From the sequence record MT446416.1: a DNA stretch of 64,000 nt, one strand, 5' to 3'. Positions 1 through 17,984 of the stretch are shown in pieces; positions within the stretch are counted from its first letter, which is position 1, and each line of letters starts with the position of its first letter. The notes below the pieces were generated by a model that did no database searches, was not told the DNA's origin, and worked only from the letters and a program-made list of their open reading frames with translations. This DNA is from Escherichia virus TH47. The position numbers were made by a program, and so were the translations under genes.

Positions 1-76
1 GAGGTCAATATCAGAATTGCACTGATTATTCAGACTTACAAGGTCCGTGTTATACTCTTTTAACTAATCGACCTGA

Positions 77-169
<93 letters not shown>

Positions 170-170
170 T

Positions 171-209
<39 letters not shown>

Positions 210-214
210 AGCAC

Positions 215-330
<116 letters not shown>

Positions 331-333
331 ACA

Positions 334-458
<125 letters not shown>

Positions 459-477
459 GCATACTCGAAGTACCTCT

Positions 478-583
<106 letters not shown>

Positions 584-627
584 AATTGCTTTATAAGCTA
601 CTGAATCGGGAATCACAACCTCCCCAT

Positions 628-923
<296 letters not shown>

Positions 924-924
924 T

Positions 925-962
<38 letters not shown>

Positions 963-1084
963 AGATAAAGATTCAACCTTGTACTCACCAGATTCAATCC
1001 AGTTCTTAATTTGTTCACGATTACCTTTGTGTCGAACATCATACTAATGGATAGCTTCCAGTACTGTTCGATAATCGTTAATGC

Positions 1085-1133
<49 letters not shown>

Positions 1134-1368
1134 AAAATATGCCATATTTGTTTCCTATGAAATGAATGTAGCGTTAATTCCCATTATAAATGCAAATATA
1201 CCAAACAATATCAGACCGATTGGTACAAAGATCATAGATCTATTTCCATGTTTCGATAAAAATCGTTCAAGTATAATTAAACGTATTGATATAGGAACCA
1301 TTATAATAATATACAATATTGAAAGAATTAAAAGTTGCATTTTAATTTCCTATTATCATTTCGTTTTG

Positions 1369-1441
1369 CGACTCTGGAGGAACTCGAATCCCCAACCAAT
1401 TAATTAACAGTTAATCGCACCACCAATTGTGCTACAGAGTC
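1369..1441 (-). tRNA. tRNA-Asn (anticodon GTT)
   Basis: Minus-strand cloverleaf read by hand: 7-bp acceptor GACTCTG/CAGAGTC, D-stem GCAC/GTGC with GG in loop, anticodon stem ATTAA/TTAAT, loop CTGTTAA, T-stem GGGGA/TCCTC, T-loop TTCGAGT; 72 nt plus discriminator. Confidence 0.7.
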
Positions 1442-1449
1442 ATAATTAT

Positions 1450-2154
1450 TTACAAGCCATGTCTTTTCAAAAATCTAGCAAACACATTTTTGGAAGCACC
1501 ATAGCTTTCATATATACTAACTTTTTTCTCACCATTAGTCAAACGTTTTTTTATATCTTCTATGTTATCTTCTAAACGTTTTACGTTTGCAAATTTCTTA
1601 GATGGTATGTTATTTTTGGTTCTATAATTCAGTACTGAACCTGAACTGATATTCATTATTTTAGCAATTTCAGTATCTAACAAACCTTGGTTAATATATT
1701 CTTTTACCTTTTCATAATCAACTGATGTTTCACCACCCTTTGTATTTGACGGAGGCTTGACCATTTTTTGTGAACACTCAACACTACAATATTTTGTATA
1801 TGATTTCACTTTAGTATGTCTACGGGAAAATTCCGTATTACAACAAGCACATACAAATGAATCATATCGTGCTTGTACTCCATTCTTATGTGTTTTATAA
1901 CGATGTTCATCAACATGAAGTATTTGTAAATTAGACAAATCATCATTTGTGAAATCATTATCAATGTGGTCTGCTTCTTCAGACTCAGTTAAATATCTAC
2001 CTTCTTGTACTGCTAATAGATATCTGGCATATTGAGTACTGCTTCTATCAGTTGGAGAATTATAAAGTATTACAGTTCTTCTACCTTCAGGGTTTATCTG
2101 TATATACCCATTCTTCCAATCATTACTATATGGATATTCTAATTTTATTTTCAT
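1450..2154 (-). CDS. HNH homing endonuclease
   Basis: 234 aa; HNH motif ADHIDNDFTNDDLSNLQILHVDEH, Cys-rich zinc-binding segment, C-terminal HTH-like tail; sits inside tRNA cluster. Confidence 0.7.
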   Translation of the reverse strand: MKIKLEYPYSNDWKNGYIQINPEGRRTVILYNSPTDRSSTQYARYLLAVQEGRYLTESEEADHIDNDFTNDDLSNLQILHVDEHRYKTHKNGVQARYDSFVCACCNTEFSRRHTKVKSYTKYCSVECSQKMVKPPSNTKGGETSVDYEKVKEYINQGLLDTEIAKIMNISSGSVLNYRTKNNIPSKKFANVKRLEDNIEDIKKRLTNGEKKVSIYESYGASKNVFARFLKRHGL

Positions 2155-2173
2155 TATTTTATTTCAAAGTTTG

Positions 2174-2478
2174 TGAGCCATCTGTGAGTCGAACACAGTA
2201 CCTAACGATTCGTATAATCTATAGTTTTCACTATAGTACGGACTATATCATCATCCCATAGGGATGCCGGACGCTAATGATGTATTACACAGTAAGATCG
2301 TACTGTACCATCTAGTCTCTGCACCTTCCCAATACGCTTATTGGGCTTGGCTCAGGATTGTCATCACCATTACGTGTTAAGATTTCCCTGAATTCATCCA
2401 GTTTTTCAATCACCATTACTGATGAAAGTCACCATTGTCGATGAGTCGTTTGCTCTAACCACCGTGAGCTAATGGCCC
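2174..2478 (-). tRNA. intron-containing tRNA, anticodon CAT (Met or Ile2-lysidine); exons 2441-2478 and 2174-2210
   Basis: 5' half GGGCCAT-TA-GCTC-ACGGTGGTTA-GAGC-A-AACGA-CTCAT and 3' half AA-TCGTT-AGGTA-CTGTG-TTCGACT-CACAG-ATGGCTC-A give perfect acceptor (7 bp, one GU), D, anticodon and T stems only when a 230-nt insert in the anticodon loop is removed. Confidence 0.65.
2211..2440 (-). ncRNA. group I intron (self-splicing intron candidate) in tRNA anticodon loop
   Basis: 230 nt; 5' exon ends in U, intron ends in G; conserved-core-like elements in order P AATTCAGGGAAA, Q AATCCTGAGCC, R GTGCAGAGACTAGA, S GATATAGTCCG; R/S can pair as P7 (GACTA/TAGTC), P/Q as P4 (CAGG/CCTG). Confidence 0.6.
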
Positions 2479-2507
2479 GATTTGGGTGTTCCTAGTGTTT
2501 CATTATT

Positions 2508-2721
<214 letters not shown>

Positions 2722-2733
2722 AAATTAATTATA

Positions 2734-3126
<393 letters not shown>

Positions 3127-3482
3127 ATCACCAACTTTAATTAAAAAAATGGATGGTTACGCTTTTAAACGCCGCTGTTAATTCAGCTTTATAACCACCC
3201 GTTTTAACTTGCCTTTCGGCTACCTTGACGTGGGGGCGTACAGGCTACTAAAAGCAACTTCTGTAAACATATTTCCACACCTTACCCTTTTAAATAAAAG
3301 TCCATCCGGTTTTCCAGTTTGGTGAAGGACTGTCACCTCTAGTTTAAACCTGCTAGTCAAGTAATAATTGCCTATCGTCCAATTATCAAACCCGTCTAGG
3401 TTAACATTCACCACTTCCTAGAGTGCCAGAGATCTTGTTCTGGATTTCATCGACGTAACTTACACCATATACGTCTGATTGT

Positions 3483-3514
3483 GGAATTCATTATATCAGT
3501 ACTGAACTATTTAG

Positions 3515-3518
<4 letters not shown>
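3483..3518 (-). promoter_or_regulatory. sigma70-like promoter
   Basis: Minus strand TTGACT - 17 nt (AAATAGTTCAGTACTGA) - TATAAT. Confidence 0.55.
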
Positions 3519-3893
<375 letters not shown>

Positions 3894-3895
3894 TA

Positions 3896-4101
<206 letters not shown>

Positions 4102-4105
<4 letters not shown>

Positions 4106-4266
4106 ATTCGTACCAGTAGTTCAATTAAGTACATTTCATATGCTGGATCGTTGATAAGTTTATCATACAGATGTGACTCTGAAATGAATTCCCAATGATA
4201 TTTTCGCCATTTACCAAAACCTGCATATCTAAAATTAATGTCATTCATCCATTCTTCATGTGTCAT
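4102..4266 (-). CDS. small hypothetical protein, MTHEEWM paralog (54 aa)
   Basis: MTHEEWMNDINFRYAGFGKWRKYHWEF...LLVRI; ATGA overlap with both neighbours. Confidence 0.45.
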
Positions 4267-4427
4267 AATCGTACCATTATTTCAATAAAGAACCACGGAT
4301 ATACTTCATGGTTTATAAGTTTATCGTATTCTGCTGGGTCTGATATAATTTCCCAATGATATTTTCGCCAACTACCTATACCCGAATATCTAACATTAAT
4401 GTCATCCATCCATTCTTCATGTGTCAT
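4263..4427 (-). CDS. small hypothetical protein, MTHEEWM paralog (54 aa)
   Basis: MTHEEWMDDINVRYSGIGSWRKYHWEI...IMVRL; near-identical 5' nucleotide sequence to the two downstream copies. Confidence 0.45.
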   Translation of the reverse strand: MTHEEWMDDINVRYSGIGSWRKYHWEIISDPAEYDKLINHEVYPWFFIEIMVRL

Positions 4428-4465
4428 GGTTTTTAACCTTTAATTAAAATTGTCAAAAATGTATT

Positions 4466-5004
<539 letters not shown>

Positions 5005-5024
5005 ATCCTTAATATTATATTTTA

Positions 5025-5096
5025 TAAAGGGCCGGAGAATCGAACTCCGATTGGATTCTTAGAAGGAATCTGTTTTATCCATTAAACTAGCCCCTC
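5025..5096 (-). tRNA. tRNA-Arg (anticodon TCT)
   Basis: Acceptor GAGGGGC/GCCCTTT (two GU), D-stem GTTT/AAAC with GG in loop, anticodon stem GATTC/GAATC, loop CTTCTAA, T-stem CGGAG/CTCCG, T-loop TTCGATT; TGATATAAT element about 11 nt upstream. Confidence 0.7.
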
Positions 5097-5712
5097 AGTA
5101 CTAATAATTATATCACATCTTTGTGGTCTGTCCCAGAAATTGTGATATAAAAGTTGTTATTCTTGTGGTTTAGTTACACCAACACCAATAATGCTTTTAA
5201 TATCAATATGGATATTAGCAAGTTCATTACTGTCAAACGGGTTAGTTTCAGTTACAACAACAGTGGCATCATTAACTAAAACTACTGAACCTTTTACGCG
5301 GTATCCCTGAAGGAGTACTTGAACATTGTCACCAGCGTTTAATGAGTTAATAACTTCTAATAGGGTAGATTCCATTTTATATTCCTTACGGTTAACTATT
5401 TTTACGTTTTTCTGATTCTGGTACAGTTTTCATTTCACCAATACATAGTTCCATGATGAGTACACCTTTATCATTATAACGTACTACATCTTCAATGTCA
5501 AAATGTCTCGCACTATGAACAACTTCAATACATGCATCATCGGGATATGATTCCAATAATGCTACAAGTTCTGCTTTTGTCATTTGCCATCTCTCTGTTA
5601 TTTATCTTTAGTAATTATAGCATAAAAACACATCATGTCAAATGTTTTATCTTTATTTTAAGTGATACACAGTACTGAAAATATAATAAAGAAAAATTTC
5701 CAGTACTGAGTT

Positions 5713-14401: not shown

Positions 14402-14940
14402 TTACGGTCCTTTGAAAAGTTCAGTTTAAAAGTTTTACCAAATTCCATTGTAGCTTTACCCAGATTGTTAATATTTTCTTTCAACATTTCTTGCATCTTC
14501 CTAATACTTTCATTCCAGGCTTCTTCTTCTTTGCGGAGGATTGGTCGCAATCGTTCCTGAATATCGTTAAAACGTGTATTGAGTTCAACCAATGATTCAT
14601 ATGTGAAATCTTTCATATCGATGATAGTACTACGTTGAAAGAATTCTTCTTCGGATAAATTACTCAAAATGATTTTATCACTACCAATAGATAATGTCAA
14701 TTCATCATCTTGATTTTTTTTAATTACAATACGTACAGGTGATTTTATAGTAATGTGAACATCATGATTATTAAAAGTTTCAGTTTTGTTTGACGTTCTG
14801 AATTGTAGTCTTCCGGTTAGTGCGTGTACTGGCATTGGTTTCTTTTTACCAGTAATAACATCTTCCCACGAATCAAGGATATTATTAATAATTTTAACAT
14901 AAGGAACTGTCATATATGCACCTATGAAAAATCCACGCAT
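14398..14940 (-). CDS. hypothetical protein, EE-x-x-FQ-x-S-T-I motif family
   Basis: 180 aa; SEEEFFQRSTI. Confidence 0.5.
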   Translation of the reverse strand: MRGFFIGAYMTVPYVKIINNILDSWEDVITGKKKPMPVHALTGRLQFRTSNKTETFNNHDVHITIKSPVRIVIKKNQDDELTLSIGSDKIILSNLSEEEFFQRSTIIDMKDFTYESLVELNTRFNDIQERLRPILRKEEEAWNESIRKMQEMLKENINNLGKATMEFGKTFKLNFSKDRK

Positions 14941-14955
14941 AGCGTGGATCTGTAA

Positions 14956-15435
14956 TTAATCGAGTATAGTAACTTCAATCAAACGAATTTCGATGAATTC
15001 GTTTTCAGTTTCCCATGATGAACCTAATTTCTTATTAAGTTCAGTTTTAACATCACTTTTAAATTTTCCCATAGTATTAGGAATAATTTGTTTGGTTAGT
15101 TTGTCATAACCACAATAAAACATAGGTTTCTCCCTTCGAGATATTAGAACAACAAAATCCTTTGGATATGCAGGTATATTATGCATCACTTCATGAATGC
15201 ACTCAGTACTTGAATCTTGTACTTTGTACATTACATTAAGTTTACCTTTGAAAGTGCTAATCATATCAACAATAATACCTTTACCAGATTTAAGTAAAGT
15301 TCCATTCTTTGTATGAGAACAATAGAATACCTCATCACCAATATTAGGATAGTACAAATTAAATTCTAATTCTTCCTTTGATGACTGACGTTGAAATTTC
15401 ATTACACGTTCAGTATAGGTGGGGTAGTTCTTCAT
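14956..15435 (-). CDS. hypothetical protein
   Basis: ORF 14956-15486 in track; start moved to internal ATG at 15435 to avoid overlap with the methyltransferase stop. Confidence 0.35.
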   Translation of the reverse strand: MKNYPTYTERVMKFQRQSSKEELEFNLYYPNIGDEVFYCSHTKNGTLLKSGKGIIVDMISTFKGKLNVMYKVQDSSTECIHEVMHNIPAYPKDFVVLISRREKPMFYCGYDKLTKQIIPNTMGKFKSDVKTELNKKLGSSWETENEFIEIRLIEVTILD

Positions 15436-15437
15436 GT

Positions 15438-17327
15438 TCAAAAGAATATCTCTCGTAGTAAGTGTGATATAACTGGCATAGTCCATCCATTCCCAAGCAT
15501 TTTATATGCTTGTGTCTTACTAGACACTTTAAAGAAATCTTCAGGAACGCCCTGTAATTTACAACATTCTACTACACTTAAGTGTCTATAGTCAATATTT
15601 CTTTTACCATTCTCTAATAGATATTGACGATTAATCATTGGGTCACGAAACACCAATTGTCGTCTTGATTTATTAAAGTACTGGTTGCAATCACCACCCT
15701 TAAAATAGTTAGCATCTATACAGTACGAAGCGGTCCTGTCAGTGTACCAACCATCTTCAATGATATCTTGAAGTTTAGGGGCATTTGATAATGCAGGTGG
15801 TATAAAAAGCTTATCAGTACTGCACCAGTAGTATCTCTGCCTGAAGTGAGGCGTATAATGCTGGGAATTTATCAGTACTGGTGTCATCTCAAGAACACTA
15901 TTAATATATTGCTTGAAATCTTCTTTCATTTTAACATTCTCGAACAGTACTTTCAAGTCTGGATTGAGACTTTTTATGTGCTCATAAATGTCAACCATTG
16001 TATGAAACAACATTCCACGCGGATCATTTATTCCACCCTGTTTACCTGCAACAGACCAAGATTGACAATTGTGCACAACTATGTTATTTGCGGTATATGT
16101 ATTGTCAACGGCAACTTCAAAATTATATACGGTTTTCCATTCACCTGTCGAAATACTTGTTTTTATACCTTTAACCCATGAATAATTTTCGTCATAAAAA
16201 GCTTCCTCTTTTTTGGGTTTGTCTTTTTTATATGATAAAACATAATACGGTTTTTGGTTTACAATTCGTCCCTCAATAACTTTAGTTTTTTCTGGTTCGG
16301 TAAGGCTTATGTTGGAATGTCTTCCGTAAACGTTCATTATTAATTGTTGGACACCTAATACACAGTCTATTGATGTTGTAGTGAATTTATAACAATTACT
16401 ATCAATATGACCATCTGCATCAAAATATCCATCAAGGAATGCTTTTTGGTTCTGTACACATTCATTGAATAAATCGGGATGAACTTTCTTATTAGATGCA
16501 CCTTTACCCATTTGTTCACAGAATTCAACGAGTTCTTTTGAACATATATAAAATTTATATGATGTTCTTTCTTTGACATAATTATATTTCATGTTCATAC
16601 CTTCAAAACACGAAATCAATTCATCAAATTCATCATGTGCACAACAGATGAAAACTCTATACTGGTAACTATTCTTTCTATTATTACGCTTTACTTTATA
16701 AGTCCATCCGTCACCCATAAAGCGTCCCATAAAATACCAGAATTTTTCATCTTTTGATGATTTACTAGATTCAATTGATTTAACATTACAAAGAAAATGT
16801 TCAGATGTTAATTCGTGTGCCTCAACCCATTCAGGTTCAGTGAAGGATCGTTCAGATTGTCTAATTCTGTTATTCCAGCTAGACGACATTTTTCTAGCAT
16901 AAAATGGATGATTATCAGTGCATTCAATTGGGATATGACCTTGACCAGTTATAATACGGGTTGGTGCTTTTTTAACACCTGTACTCAATACTGGATGATA
17001 TTGTCCAGTATGTGTTAGTACCATGTCACCAACTTGAATGTCTTTAATGTCTTTATGACCTTTATCGGTCATTATCATTGTTCCTTCCGTGAAGCACGGG
17101 AACCCTCCCATGAGAAGGTCAATTTTATCCCACTCAATATCCCATTCTCTCCATTTAGTTACATCACCCAATTGGGTGATATCAGGAAAGTTAGCTTGAG
17201 ATTCAGCTATTGCGTACTTGTCAATTTCGGATGAATAATATTTTTCAACAGGGATACCAGCATCTTTTAATGCCATGTATCCCACACTCATCCCATTAAA
17301 AAGAGATAGTACTCGGATAGGTTTCAT
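15438..17327 (-). CDS. DNA (cytosine-5)-methyltransferase precursor interrupted by an intein
   Basis: 629 aa; exteins (286 aa) carry C5-MTase motifs: motif I-like LSLFNGMSVGYMAL, split motif IV GGFP...CQSWSVAGKQGG, motif VI ENV, C-terminal GNGWTMPV; 343-aa insert between the P and catalytic C. Confidence 0.8.
   Translation of the reverse strand: MKPIRVLSLFNGMSVGYMALKDAGIPVEKYYSSEIDKYAIAESQANFPDITQLGDVTKWREWDIEWDKIDLLMGGFPCFTEGTMIMTDKGHKDIKDIQVGDMVLTHTGQYHPVLSTGVKKAPTRIITGQGHIPIECTDNHPFYARKMSSSWNNRIRQSERSFTEPEWVEAHELTSEHFLCNVKSIESSKSSKDEKFWYFMGRFMGDGWTYKVKRNNRKNSYQYRVFICCAHDEFDELISCFEGMNMKYNYVKERTSYKFYICSKELVEFCEQMGKGASNKKVHPDLFNECVQNQKAFLDGYFDADGHIDSNCYKFTTTSIDCVLGVQQLIMNVYGRHSNISLTEPEKTKVIEGRIVNQKPYYVLSYKKDKPKKEEAFYDENYSWVKGIKTSISTGEWKTVYNFEVAVDNTYTANNIVVHNCQSWSVAGKQGGINDPRGMLFHTMVDIYEHIKSLNPDLKVLFENVKMKEDFKQYINSVLEMTPVLINSQHYTPHFRQRYYWCSTDKLFIPPALSNAPKLQDIIEDGWYTDRTASYCIDANYFKGGDCNQYFNKSRRQLVFRDPMINRQYLLENGKRNIDYRHLSVVECCKLQGVPEDFFKVSSKTQAYKMLGNGWTMPVISHLLREIFF
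16068..17096 (-). other. intein with LAGLIDADG homing endonuclease domain
   Basis: Starts CFTEGTMIMTD, has TxxH block (ECTDNHPF), two LAGLIDADG-like blocks (FWYFMGRFMGDGW, FLDGYFDADGHI), ends NIVVHN followed by +1 Cys; junction codons checked in the nucleotide sequence. Confidence 0.75.
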
Positions 17328-17984
17328 ATAAAATCCTTTTTATATTGTTAAGGTACTATAATATATTATAGCATCTTATTTAGAAATCTCCCAAACTTTT
17401 TTCATCACACCATCGTGATGTGCAGATGATTGCAGATGCCAAAATTGAAGCACTTGCTCGGCCTCCACCGAGTAAGTACTGGCTAATGACACCAATCATA
17501 TTGAAGACTTTATCATACTCAGCAAGGAGTTCGAAATCCTTCTTCCAACATTGATATTCTTCTTCAGTAACATTAAACTCATCACCAAGTTCATTTAAAA
17601 TCTTTTTTAGTACTGCACGATGTTCACTCATCGGATTCCCCATATCGTTCGTCGTAAAAATCATCATCACGGTCCAACGGTTCTTTTGGTTTTTCTGTCA
17701 TATATTTCCTCACATGGTAAATGTATTATCACCATCCATATCTTCATCTGTAGCTTCAGCTAAGGTCTTAATCGTCAATAATTCACGCTTCACGTACAAC
17801 ATGAAGACCTTTTCATAATTACCAAACATCATCTCAGGTGACATGTAATTCTCCGTTACAATGACGATTGGGCGGCCCTGTGACAGCATACGAAACATAG
17901 TACGGTATTTGTCAAAGGTGCGAAATTCATCCATGTTCATCATGTGGCGTTTACGAACTACTTTAGTCATTTTGATACCTTTAG

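Follow-up and report, generated by a model that had tools for sequence, protein, structure and literature searches.

In enzymes of DNA metabolism, inteins are as a rule inserted at catalytic residues. The solved elements PI-SceI (VMA1), TliVMA, PI-PfuI, and PI-PkoII share a Hint fold split by a two-motif LAGLIDADG endonuclease, with Cys1, a TxxH block, a terminal His-Asn, and Cys at +1, and each of them interrupts the best-conserved active-site motif of an enzyme that acts on nucleic acids. Among phage methylases, inteins have been reported in the N6/N4-type (PF01555 class) enzymes DNMT-1/2 of mycobacteriophages (Kelley et al., 2016, PMC5050341) and in the actinophage family Dorothy_75, whose methylase class is unnamed there (Gosselin et al., 2023, PMC9957025). 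In Rak2-like jumbo phages, inteins were noted only in the terminase (PMC5259590). The open-access literature yielded no description of an intein in a C5-cytosine methyltransferase (MTase) or at its Pro-Cys motif; InBase and survey supplements may catalogue the site, and most co-mentions of intein and methyltransferase concern intein purification tags. Here we analyzed a 343-residue insert in an open reading frame (ORF) of Escherichia virus TH47 (sequence record MT446416.1), located in a stretch of 64,000 nucleotides that is called the window below. Our results indicate that a class-1 intein with a LAGLIDADG endonuclease has very probably invaded a C5-cytosine MTase between Pro77 and the catalytic Cys, and splicing and homing are both predicted. 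The mechanism is canonical. The host gene and the site are apparently undescribed, though abundant in public sequence, where the records inspected do not annotate an intein.

The ORF (15438..17327, minus strand) begins with ATG and codes for a C5-cytosine methyltransferase precursor of 629 aa and 73.3 kDa. Around the two junctions, marked here by slashes, it reads ...DLLMGGFP / CFTEGTMIMT ... TANNIVVHN / CQSWSVAGKQGG..., so that GGFP (aa 74-77) is followed by 343 residues, CFTEGT...NIVVHN (aa 78-420), and then by CQSWSVAGKQGG (aa 421 onward). Joining the exteins gives a predicted spliced product of 286 aa. In Pfam, PF00145 (DNA_methylase) scored 113.5 bits in two separate stretches, aa 4-78 and aa 421-629, and the gap between them was occupied by Hint_2 (39.4 bits, cut-off 28.4) and LAGLIDADG_3 (PF14528; 30.7 bits, cut-off 22.5), while the C-terminal end of Intein_splicing was matched up to residue 420, where the match stops. 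Such a split-domain pattern in a 629-aa ORF is far beyond chance. The GGFP, 343-aa, and 286-aa layout given by the initial annotation was confirmed in the ORF sequence, and the TxxH block, two LAGLIDADG-like motifs, and terminal HN that it listed were located as TDNH, both motifs, and HN followed by Cys. The features of the ORF, all on the minus strand, are as follows.

15438..17327, minus strand: precursor ORF, consisting of N-extein, intein, C-extein, and stop (629 aa, 73.3 kDa)
17097..17327, minus strand: N-extein, aa 1-77 (PF00145 stretch 4-78; DNMT3 and M.HhaI alignments)
17280-17300, minus strand: C5-MTase motif I, FNGMSVG, within the N-extein
17097-17108, minus strand: first half of motif IV, GGFP, at the end of the N-extein
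16068..17096, minus strand: predicted intein, residues 78-420, 343 aa, 39.9 kDa (missing exactly in intein-less alleles; Hint_2, LAGLIDADG_3, Intein_splicing; AlphaFold and Foldseek)
16767..17096, minus strand: N-terminal splicing (Hint) subdomain, intein residues ~1-110, boundary approximate (Hint_2 at 77-158; all-beta to residue ~105 in the model)
17094-17096, minus strand: block A Cys1, in the Hint subdomain
within 16899-16925, minus strand: block B TDNH, intein residues 60-63, in the Hint subdomain
16212..16766, minus strand: predicted LAGLIDADG endonuclease domain, intein residues ~111-295, boundaries approximate (LAGLIDADG_3; model fold; I-DmoI matches)
16704-16736, minus strand: LAGLIDADG motif 1, YFMGRFMGDGW (D129), intein residues 121-131
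16407-16442, minus strand: LAGLIDADG motif 2, AFLDGYFDADGH (D228), intein residues 219-230
within 16482-16496, minus strand: conserved Lys K203, in the endonuclease domain
16068..16211, minus strand: C-terminal splicing subdomain, intein residues ~296-343 (Intein_splicing match to residue 420; H342 and N343 conserved)
16089-16133, minus strand: block F, TVYNFEVAVDNTYTA
16068-16088, minus strand: block G, NNIVVHN
15438..16067, minus strand: C-extein, aa 421-629, and stop (PF00145; M.HaeIII 70-206 aligned to 420-547)
16044-16067, minus strand: rest of motif IV, CQSWSVAG, beginning with the catalytic Cys421 (+1 residue)
15933-15947, minus strand: motif VI, ENV, in the C-extein
15825-15842, minus strand: motif VIII, RQRYYW, in the C-extein
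15543-15587, minus strand: motif IX, in the C-extein
15483-15497, minus strand: motif X, GNGW, in the C-extein
15886..17121, minus strand: JNE01-like patch of ~1.24 kb, the intein with ~25 nt of N-extein and ~182 nt of C-extein, presumed to be a co-conversion tract

All sequence-level features, together with the predicted fold, identify the insert as a canonical class-1 intein with a monomeric two-motif LAGLIDADG endonuclease. A Cys nucleophile at intein position 1 is accompanied by the block B TDNH, the C-terminal His-Asn is followed by Cys421 at +1, the Hint fold is recognized by Hint_2 above its cut-off, and the insert is precisely missing from homologues, in which the host motif is contiguous. 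The two endonuclease helices end in an acidic residue (...GRFMGD129G and ...YFDAD228G), and PF14528 scores above its cut-off. Conservation was assessed in a metagenomic intein alignment, made of the window intein and 10 distant metagenome relatives (29-39% identity), and in a second alignment of ten phage inteins. Residues C1, T60, H63, G124, R125, D129, G130, K203, G223, D228, G229, and N343 were invariant in the former. In the phage inteins, C1, H63, G130, and D228 were invariant and T60, K203, and G229 were conserved at ≥90%, with D129 falling under 90%. The terminal Asn343 is conserved, and the residue before it, His in the majority of relatives, is replaced in some by Phe, Tyr, or Lys. 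The AlphaFold2 model of the intein, built from the metagenomic alignment (mean pLDDT 90.3, pTM 0.88), has an all-beta N-terminal part, two alpha-beta-beta-alpha-beta-beta-alpha halves in tandem, and a beta-rich C-terminal part. In Foldseek searches against the Protein Data Bank (PDB), the model matched solved inteins (E 8e-18 to 1e-10), the best being the TliVMA intein (7qsu, E = 8e-18, TM 0.72), with PI-SceI, PI-PfuI, and PI-PkoII also found, and the central domain matched dozens of I-DmoI structures (E ~2e-8, target-normalised TM 0.63-0.70). Domain models, conserved residues, and predicted fold thus agree with the intein and LAGLIDADG endonuclease of the initial annotation. Unlike the solved inteins, which are its best structural matches and share only 10-18% sequence identity with it, the window intein is hosted by a C5-cytosine MTase and not by an ATPase, polymerase, or ribonucleotide reductase (RNR), and it is smaller than PI-SceI (343 aa), without an obvious extra DNA-recognition region.

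Two other kinds of element were considered and rejected. A bacterial intein-like (BIL) domain is ruled out by the endonuclease domain, the Asn-Cys junction, and the seat in the host's most conserved motif, and a group I intron at 15438-17327 is ruled out by the continuous frame, the Hint domain, and the absence of an Rfam intron at this position. When the whole window was searched by tblastn with the intein as the query, no second copy or relative of it turned up.

The distribution of the insert was examined by megablast of window positions 14900-17900 against GenBank phages. The search returned 36 records, all of them jumbo phages that infect E. coli or Salmonella and fall in the 121Q/PBECO4 group (genus Asteriusvirus where classified); judged by this similarity, the window comes from an Asteriusvirus-like phage. 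The top flank identity was 94.4% (WPEC5 and fEgEco12) and was higher in none of the phage records searched, and an exact-protein look-up did not find the window's protein in public assemblies. Most of the records matched in two pieces, with a span 1029 nt shorter than the query, and 32/36 lack exactly these 1029 nt. When the intein-less gene was used as the query, an uninterrupted 861-nt copy was found in 30 of the 36 records and a frameshifted, insert-free copy in 2 (Salmonella phages). In WPEC5, 121Q, and Turkey3, the 286-aa MTase reads GGFP/CQAWSVAG, with Pro and Cys adjacent. The remaining four records, JNE01, A4, ph0011, and UE-S1, carry the insert at the same position of the orthologous gene, with 95%, 76%, 53%, and 54% amino acid identity to the window intein, respectively; in the alignment its 343 aa fit precisely between GGFP and CQ(A/S)WS, and the ORF is unbroken in all five intein-bearing phages including that of the window. 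Unlike these four alleles, the window allele has the extein background of the intein-less WPEC5/121Q lineage. The two frameshifted Salmonella copies deserve a separate remark. In SD-6_S16 (L015:2256-3052), and also in SD-1_S14, the MTase is present as two overlapping coding sequences (CDSs) that match only from nucleotide 310-340 onward. A different insertion behind the partial match of SD-6_S16 was ruled out, as the gene is split by frameshifts only, and its sequence reads as a frameshifted pseudogene or a low-quality assembly.

The intein-less alleles bear directly on the idea that the MTase family possesses the 343 aa as a built-in accessory domain, for example a DNA-targeting module, which the initial annotation had named as the result that would speak against an intein. 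The continuous reading frame is consistent with such a domain, and nothing further favors it. On the contrary, the insert-free relatives, with their contiguous motif IV, already refute an integral domain and at the same time define the insertion site through the comparison with intein-less homologues that the initial annotation had suggested. In addition, unrelated C5-MTases have homologous inserts at this very dipeptide, and relatives of the intein are found in NrdD and in N6/N4 methylases. The probability of an integral domain is therefore next to nil in our judgement.

The conserved C5-MTase motifs of the host protein, I, IV (PC), VI (ENV), VIII, IX, and X, follow one another in the expected order; motif IV becomes whole only once the intein is removed. 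The NCBIfam dcm superfamily model narrowly missed its cut-off (100.0 vs 100.65), its match being split into three stretches around the intein. In a sequence search of the PDB, M.HaeIII (1dct) residues 70-206 aligned to query residues 420-547, with its catalytic Cys71 opposite C421, while the N-terminal alignments of M.HhaI and of the Pfam model run as far as query residue 78, which is intein Cys1. The latter two put the cysteine of "PC" on Cys1 because both flanking residues are Cys, and the intein-less alleles together with the intein chemistry (HN/C) resolve this ambiguity in favor of C421. The M.HaeIII alignment and the intein-less alleles are thus in accordance with an insert between Pro and the catalytic Cys of motif IV, with this Cys as the +1 residue, as had been proposed at the outset. 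In the same PDB search, the exteins were nearer to the catalytic domains of animal DNMT3A/3B/3C (E ~1e-18) than to M.HaeIII (7e-11) or M.HhaI (1e-9), and the motif I LSLF(N/D)G... is common to the window MTase and these animal enzymes. The window gene thus appears to encode a DNMT3-like C5-cytosine DNA methyltransferase of an Asteriusvirus-type jumbo coliphage, with predicted activity.

According to intein chemistry, the 73-kDa precursor would undergo an N-S acyl shift at intein Cys1 (Cys78), and the N-extein would then be transesterified onto Cys421, which would serve both as the +1 residue and as the catalytic nucleophile of the MTase. Asn343 (Asn420 of the precursor) would cyclise, helped by His342, and an S-N shift would finally yield a 33-kDa MTase with the loop GGFPCQSWS and a free 40-kDa intein. 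Since 343 residues keep the catalytic loop apart from the remainder of the fold until splicing, methylation should depend on splicing, as the initial annotation had supposed.

Selection on the gene was estimated by pairwise Nei-Gojobori dN/dS. For the whole intein, dN/dS was 0.08 between the window and JNE01 (dS 0.25) and also 0.08 between the window and A4, a rough value because dS is saturated (~2); in the same two comparisons, the endonuclease-containing middle gave 0.09-0.10. The exteins gave 0.06-0.07 (window-JNE01, A4-ph0011, ph0011-UE-S1). These low ratios indicate that both the methyltransferase and the endonuclease are maintained by selection, and that the MTase is kept despite a 343-aa insert in its catalytic loop suggests in turn that the insert is removed, and hence that splicing works. 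This bears on the possibility that the insert does not splice, so that the MTase is inactivated or is a fusion with another role, and the intein features are relics. In favor of such relics, block F carries Asn in place of the common Asp, and splicing is so far a prediction. However, C1, T60, H63, H342, N343, and C+1 are all conserved, the ORF has stayed intact in every intein-bearing phage, and the low dN/dS of the exteins is unexpected for a permanently broken enzyme. We consider a non-splicing insert highly improbable.

The intein and the exteins of the window gene have different affinities. Nucleotide identity to JNE01 was 94.4% in the intein and 83.4% in the exteins, and the exteins were closest to the intein-less 121Q and WPEC5 (90-91%). 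Sites differing between JNE01 and WPEC5 were therefore scored along the gene, counted from the insertion point. Between -25 and +182, 36 sites of the window gene were JNE01-like and 9 were WPEC5-like, whereas between +183 and the stop codon 3 were JNE01-like and 82 WPEC5-like (Fisher p = 3.8e-20 vs the tract). The gene 3' of the patch (15441-15861) is 93-100% identical to intein-less WPEC5. The patch is centered on the intein, and JNE01-like sequence directly adjoins both junctions. The window gene thus resembles a WPEC5/121Q-like allele with a donor-like patch, which is the co-conversion pattern expected from homing, and the element looks recently mobile. By analogy with other LAGLIDADG enzymes, in a mixed infection the endonuclease would cut the empty allele at the coding sequence of motif IV, approximately at ...GGATTCCCA/TGTCAAGCCTGG..., around CCA/TGT, and repair of the break from the occupied allele would copy the intein together with flanking extein sequence. 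The "active mobile element" of the initial annotation gains indirect support from the purifying selection on the endonuclease and from this tract.

Several observations weigh against an actively splicing and homing intein. The block F position is commonly Asp in inteins, and the Asn found here (VYNF) is near-invariant in this intein clade. Splicing and DNA cleavage by the element are deduced from sequence conservation, and the dN/dS estimate from A4 suffers from the saturation mentioned above. The intein is present in only 4/36 related records, so it is not sweeping through the phage group. The N-extein side upstream of -25 is a more complex mosaic (11 JNE01-like and 16 WPEC5-like sites), ph0011 and other alleles are themselves mosaics, and ordinary recombination among phages, with the intein included by chance, could have produced the mosaic. 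Some of these points would fit an intein that splices with an inactive endonuclease, late in the homing cycle, the JNE01-like patch then being the product of ordinary homologous recombination in jumbo phage co-infections. Mosaic exteins are a general feature of the gene family, with ph0011 and A4 switching affinities along the gene, and versions with a damaged endonuclease are known (P0004 and P0009); the scarcity of the intein among the records points the same way. Against this, the window lineage retains both catalytic Asp residues as well as the conserved Lys, the endonuclease is under the purifying selection described above, and the patch lies around the intein with donor-like sequence at both of its ends. 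An inactive endonuclease accordingly seems unlikely, and we favor a homing-competent intein in the window lineage.

Other alleles illustrate further states of the element. The splicing parts of the ph0011 (L003:1667-2686) and UE-S1 (in L009) inteins have 71-74% nucleotide identity to the window, and their endonuclease middle is strongly diverged (about 56-56.7% nucleotide identity, dN/dS 0.43), which suggests that the endonuclease module was replaced or is rapidly diverging. The metagenome protein P0004 (551 aa) is an orthologous MTase with a 264-aa intein (residues 78-341) at the same site, in which motif 1 and its half-domain are gone and motif 2 has no acidic residues (LCGLFSSKC). By these losses, P0004 is a decaying intein, and the intein of P0009 also lacks half of the endonuclease. 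Empty, apparently active occupied, and decaying occupied alleles therefore seem to coexist, as the homing-cycle model predicts.

Similar inteins were found at the same Pro/Cys site in other C5-MTases. A search with the intein only returned 12 proteins, and an intein-profile search of a clustered database returned 51 proteins at E <= 1e-8, of which 42 have both PF00145 and Hint. The junction xxP/C...(H/F/Y)N/C(Q/T)xxS was recognized by a crude pattern in at least 29 of the profile matches, and 5 more are mis-starts at GGSPCF. In GenBank phages, tblastn identified full-length relatives (23-33% identity) inside other MTase genes, and the following junctions were read directly.

Lactobacillus phage Nyseid (gp072): FGFP/C...VHN/CQDIS
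Erwinia phage Y3 (gp050): GSPP/C...VHN/CKGFS
Propionibacterium phage B22 (gp50): GGSP/C...VHN/CQDLS
Mannheimia phage 587AP2 (gp35): GGTP/C...VHN/CQS
P1-like Dmt, three records (OP279344 and RCS47 included): GGTP/C...VHN/CQAFS
Pseudomonas phage Lana (gp070): FSPD/C...VHN/CTHFS

These relatives share the insertion point (xxP/C...HN/C(Q/K/T)xxS) and the two-domain intein with the window, at 23-31% identity along the full length, whereas their exteins belong to unrelated C5-MTase subfamilies in unrelated phages. The presence of related inteins (23-38% identity) at this site in C5-MTases of many phages, metagenomes, and a few bacteria suggests that the site is old and widespread. Intein annotation was absent from all of the related records inspected. 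In the P1-like phages (OP279344 dmt, L013:2501-3523; RCS47; vB_EcoM-Ro157c2YLVW), a 341-aa intein lies in the C5 half of the bifunctional Dmt (1014 aa), and it is probably polymorphic there, because only three P1-like phages were matched (five records with RefSeq/GenBank duplicates). In Mannheimia phage vB_MhS_587AP2 (gp35/gp34, L005:1264-3100), the MTase is broken just after the intein (CQSDKGG...stop), and the C-terminal motifs IX and X sit in an overlapping second CDS, so this intein-bearing gene is probably decayed or frameshifted.

More distant relatives occupy other sites, namely RV/C...KN/CGY in the NrdD of lactococcal phages and HV/C...KN/CPLQ in helicase-N6/N4-methylase fusions of mycobacteriophages. 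The methylase inteins of actinophages and mycobacteriophages are detectably homologous to the window intein (~28% identity, E ~1e-33), and they are similar to it in being LAGLIDADG inteins of phage orphan DNA methylases with a patchy spread and signs of transfer between divergent methylases. However, the mycobacteriophage hosts are N6/N4-type and often helicase-fused, whereas the window intein lies in a C5-MTase at the catalytic Pro-Cys. The junction of Pacc40 gp60 (...QMHV/C...VVKN/CPLQF) is also at another site, with Lys in place of His before the terminal Asn. The names given to these proteins differ between databases. RefSeq calls the helicase/N6-N4 methylases (Pacc40 gp60, L016; many cluster-F mycobacteriophages) "anaerobic ribonucleoside reductase large subunit," and GenBank calls the same proteins "DNA methylase" or "helicase." The family phrog_26446, named NrdD, matches the intein region at 7e-39, and the NrdD label on the mycobacteriophage methylases looks like a transfer through shared intein similarity. 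Annotation suffers in two ways, as interrupted MTases are labelled "hypothetical" and methylases are mislabelled as NrdD.

Our results add C5-cytosine MTases, at the Pro-Cys of motif IV, to the homing sites of inteins. They also point to culturable E. coli jumbo phages as natural pairs, intein-plus (JNE01, A4, ph0011, UE-S1, and the phage of the window) vs intein-minus (121Q, PBECO4, WPEC5, and others), which with a visible co-conversion tract would be a tractable system for intein homing in phage co-infections. The same pairs could be used to test whether splicing gates an anti-restriction methylase. Since the endonuclease should target the GGxPCQxxS coding sequence common to many C5-MTase genes, the enzyme may prove useful as a meganuclease scaffold. 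Conditional splicing governed by redox state, temperature, or DNA binding has been shown for some other inteins. A bolder and rather improbable proposal is that the Pro/Cys-site inteins form an undescribed, ancient, C5-MTase-specific family, in which the catalytic cysteine of the enzyme also serves as a splicing nucleophile and splicing, through the adjacent thiols of Cys1 and Cys+1, conditionally times phage DNA modification. If this were true, splicing, and hence self-methylation and protection against restriction, would be set by redox, temperature, or DNA binding, and a selfish element would time DNA modification post-translationally in the course of infection.

The rest of the window includes a DNA-metabolism block (25900-63500, minus strand) that codes for a TelA-like protein, topoisomerase II A/B-like subunits, a Dda/PIF1-like helicase, the large and small subunits of class I RNR, and a DnaB-like helicase; none of these genes bears an intein in the window. 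At the other end (1-5100) there is a tRNA cluster (Thr, Asn, Ser, Arg, and an intron-containing Met), in which the phage tRNA-Met(CAU) gene is split by a group I intron of 230 nt (Rfam RF00028, 100.5 bits, gathering score 50).

2174-2478, minus strand: tRNA-Met gene with the intron (5' exon 2441-2478, intron 2211-2440, 3' exon 2174-2210)
1450-2154, minus strand: free-standing HNH-type endonuclease ORF, 234 aa, beginning 20 nt after the tRNA

Group I introns of phage tRNA genes were not described in the literature searched, and a survey of bacterial introns leaves phages out (PMC13011429). The intron is seated between nucleotides 36 and 37 of the anticodon loop. ARAGORN recognizes the joined exons as a 76-nt tRNA-Met(CAT), and the intron-bearing gene is missed both by ARAGORN and by the annotations of related records. 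The intron is absent from most relatives, and in WPEC5 the tRNA-Met is annotated as uninterrupted (...GACTCAT/AATCGTT...). It is a second mobile element of the window, independent of the intein and maybe less expected. Unannotated copies with ~90-95% identity occur in Escherichia phage Turkey5 and in the Klebsiella Alcyoneusvirus phages Muenster, KP13-7, and RCIP0023.

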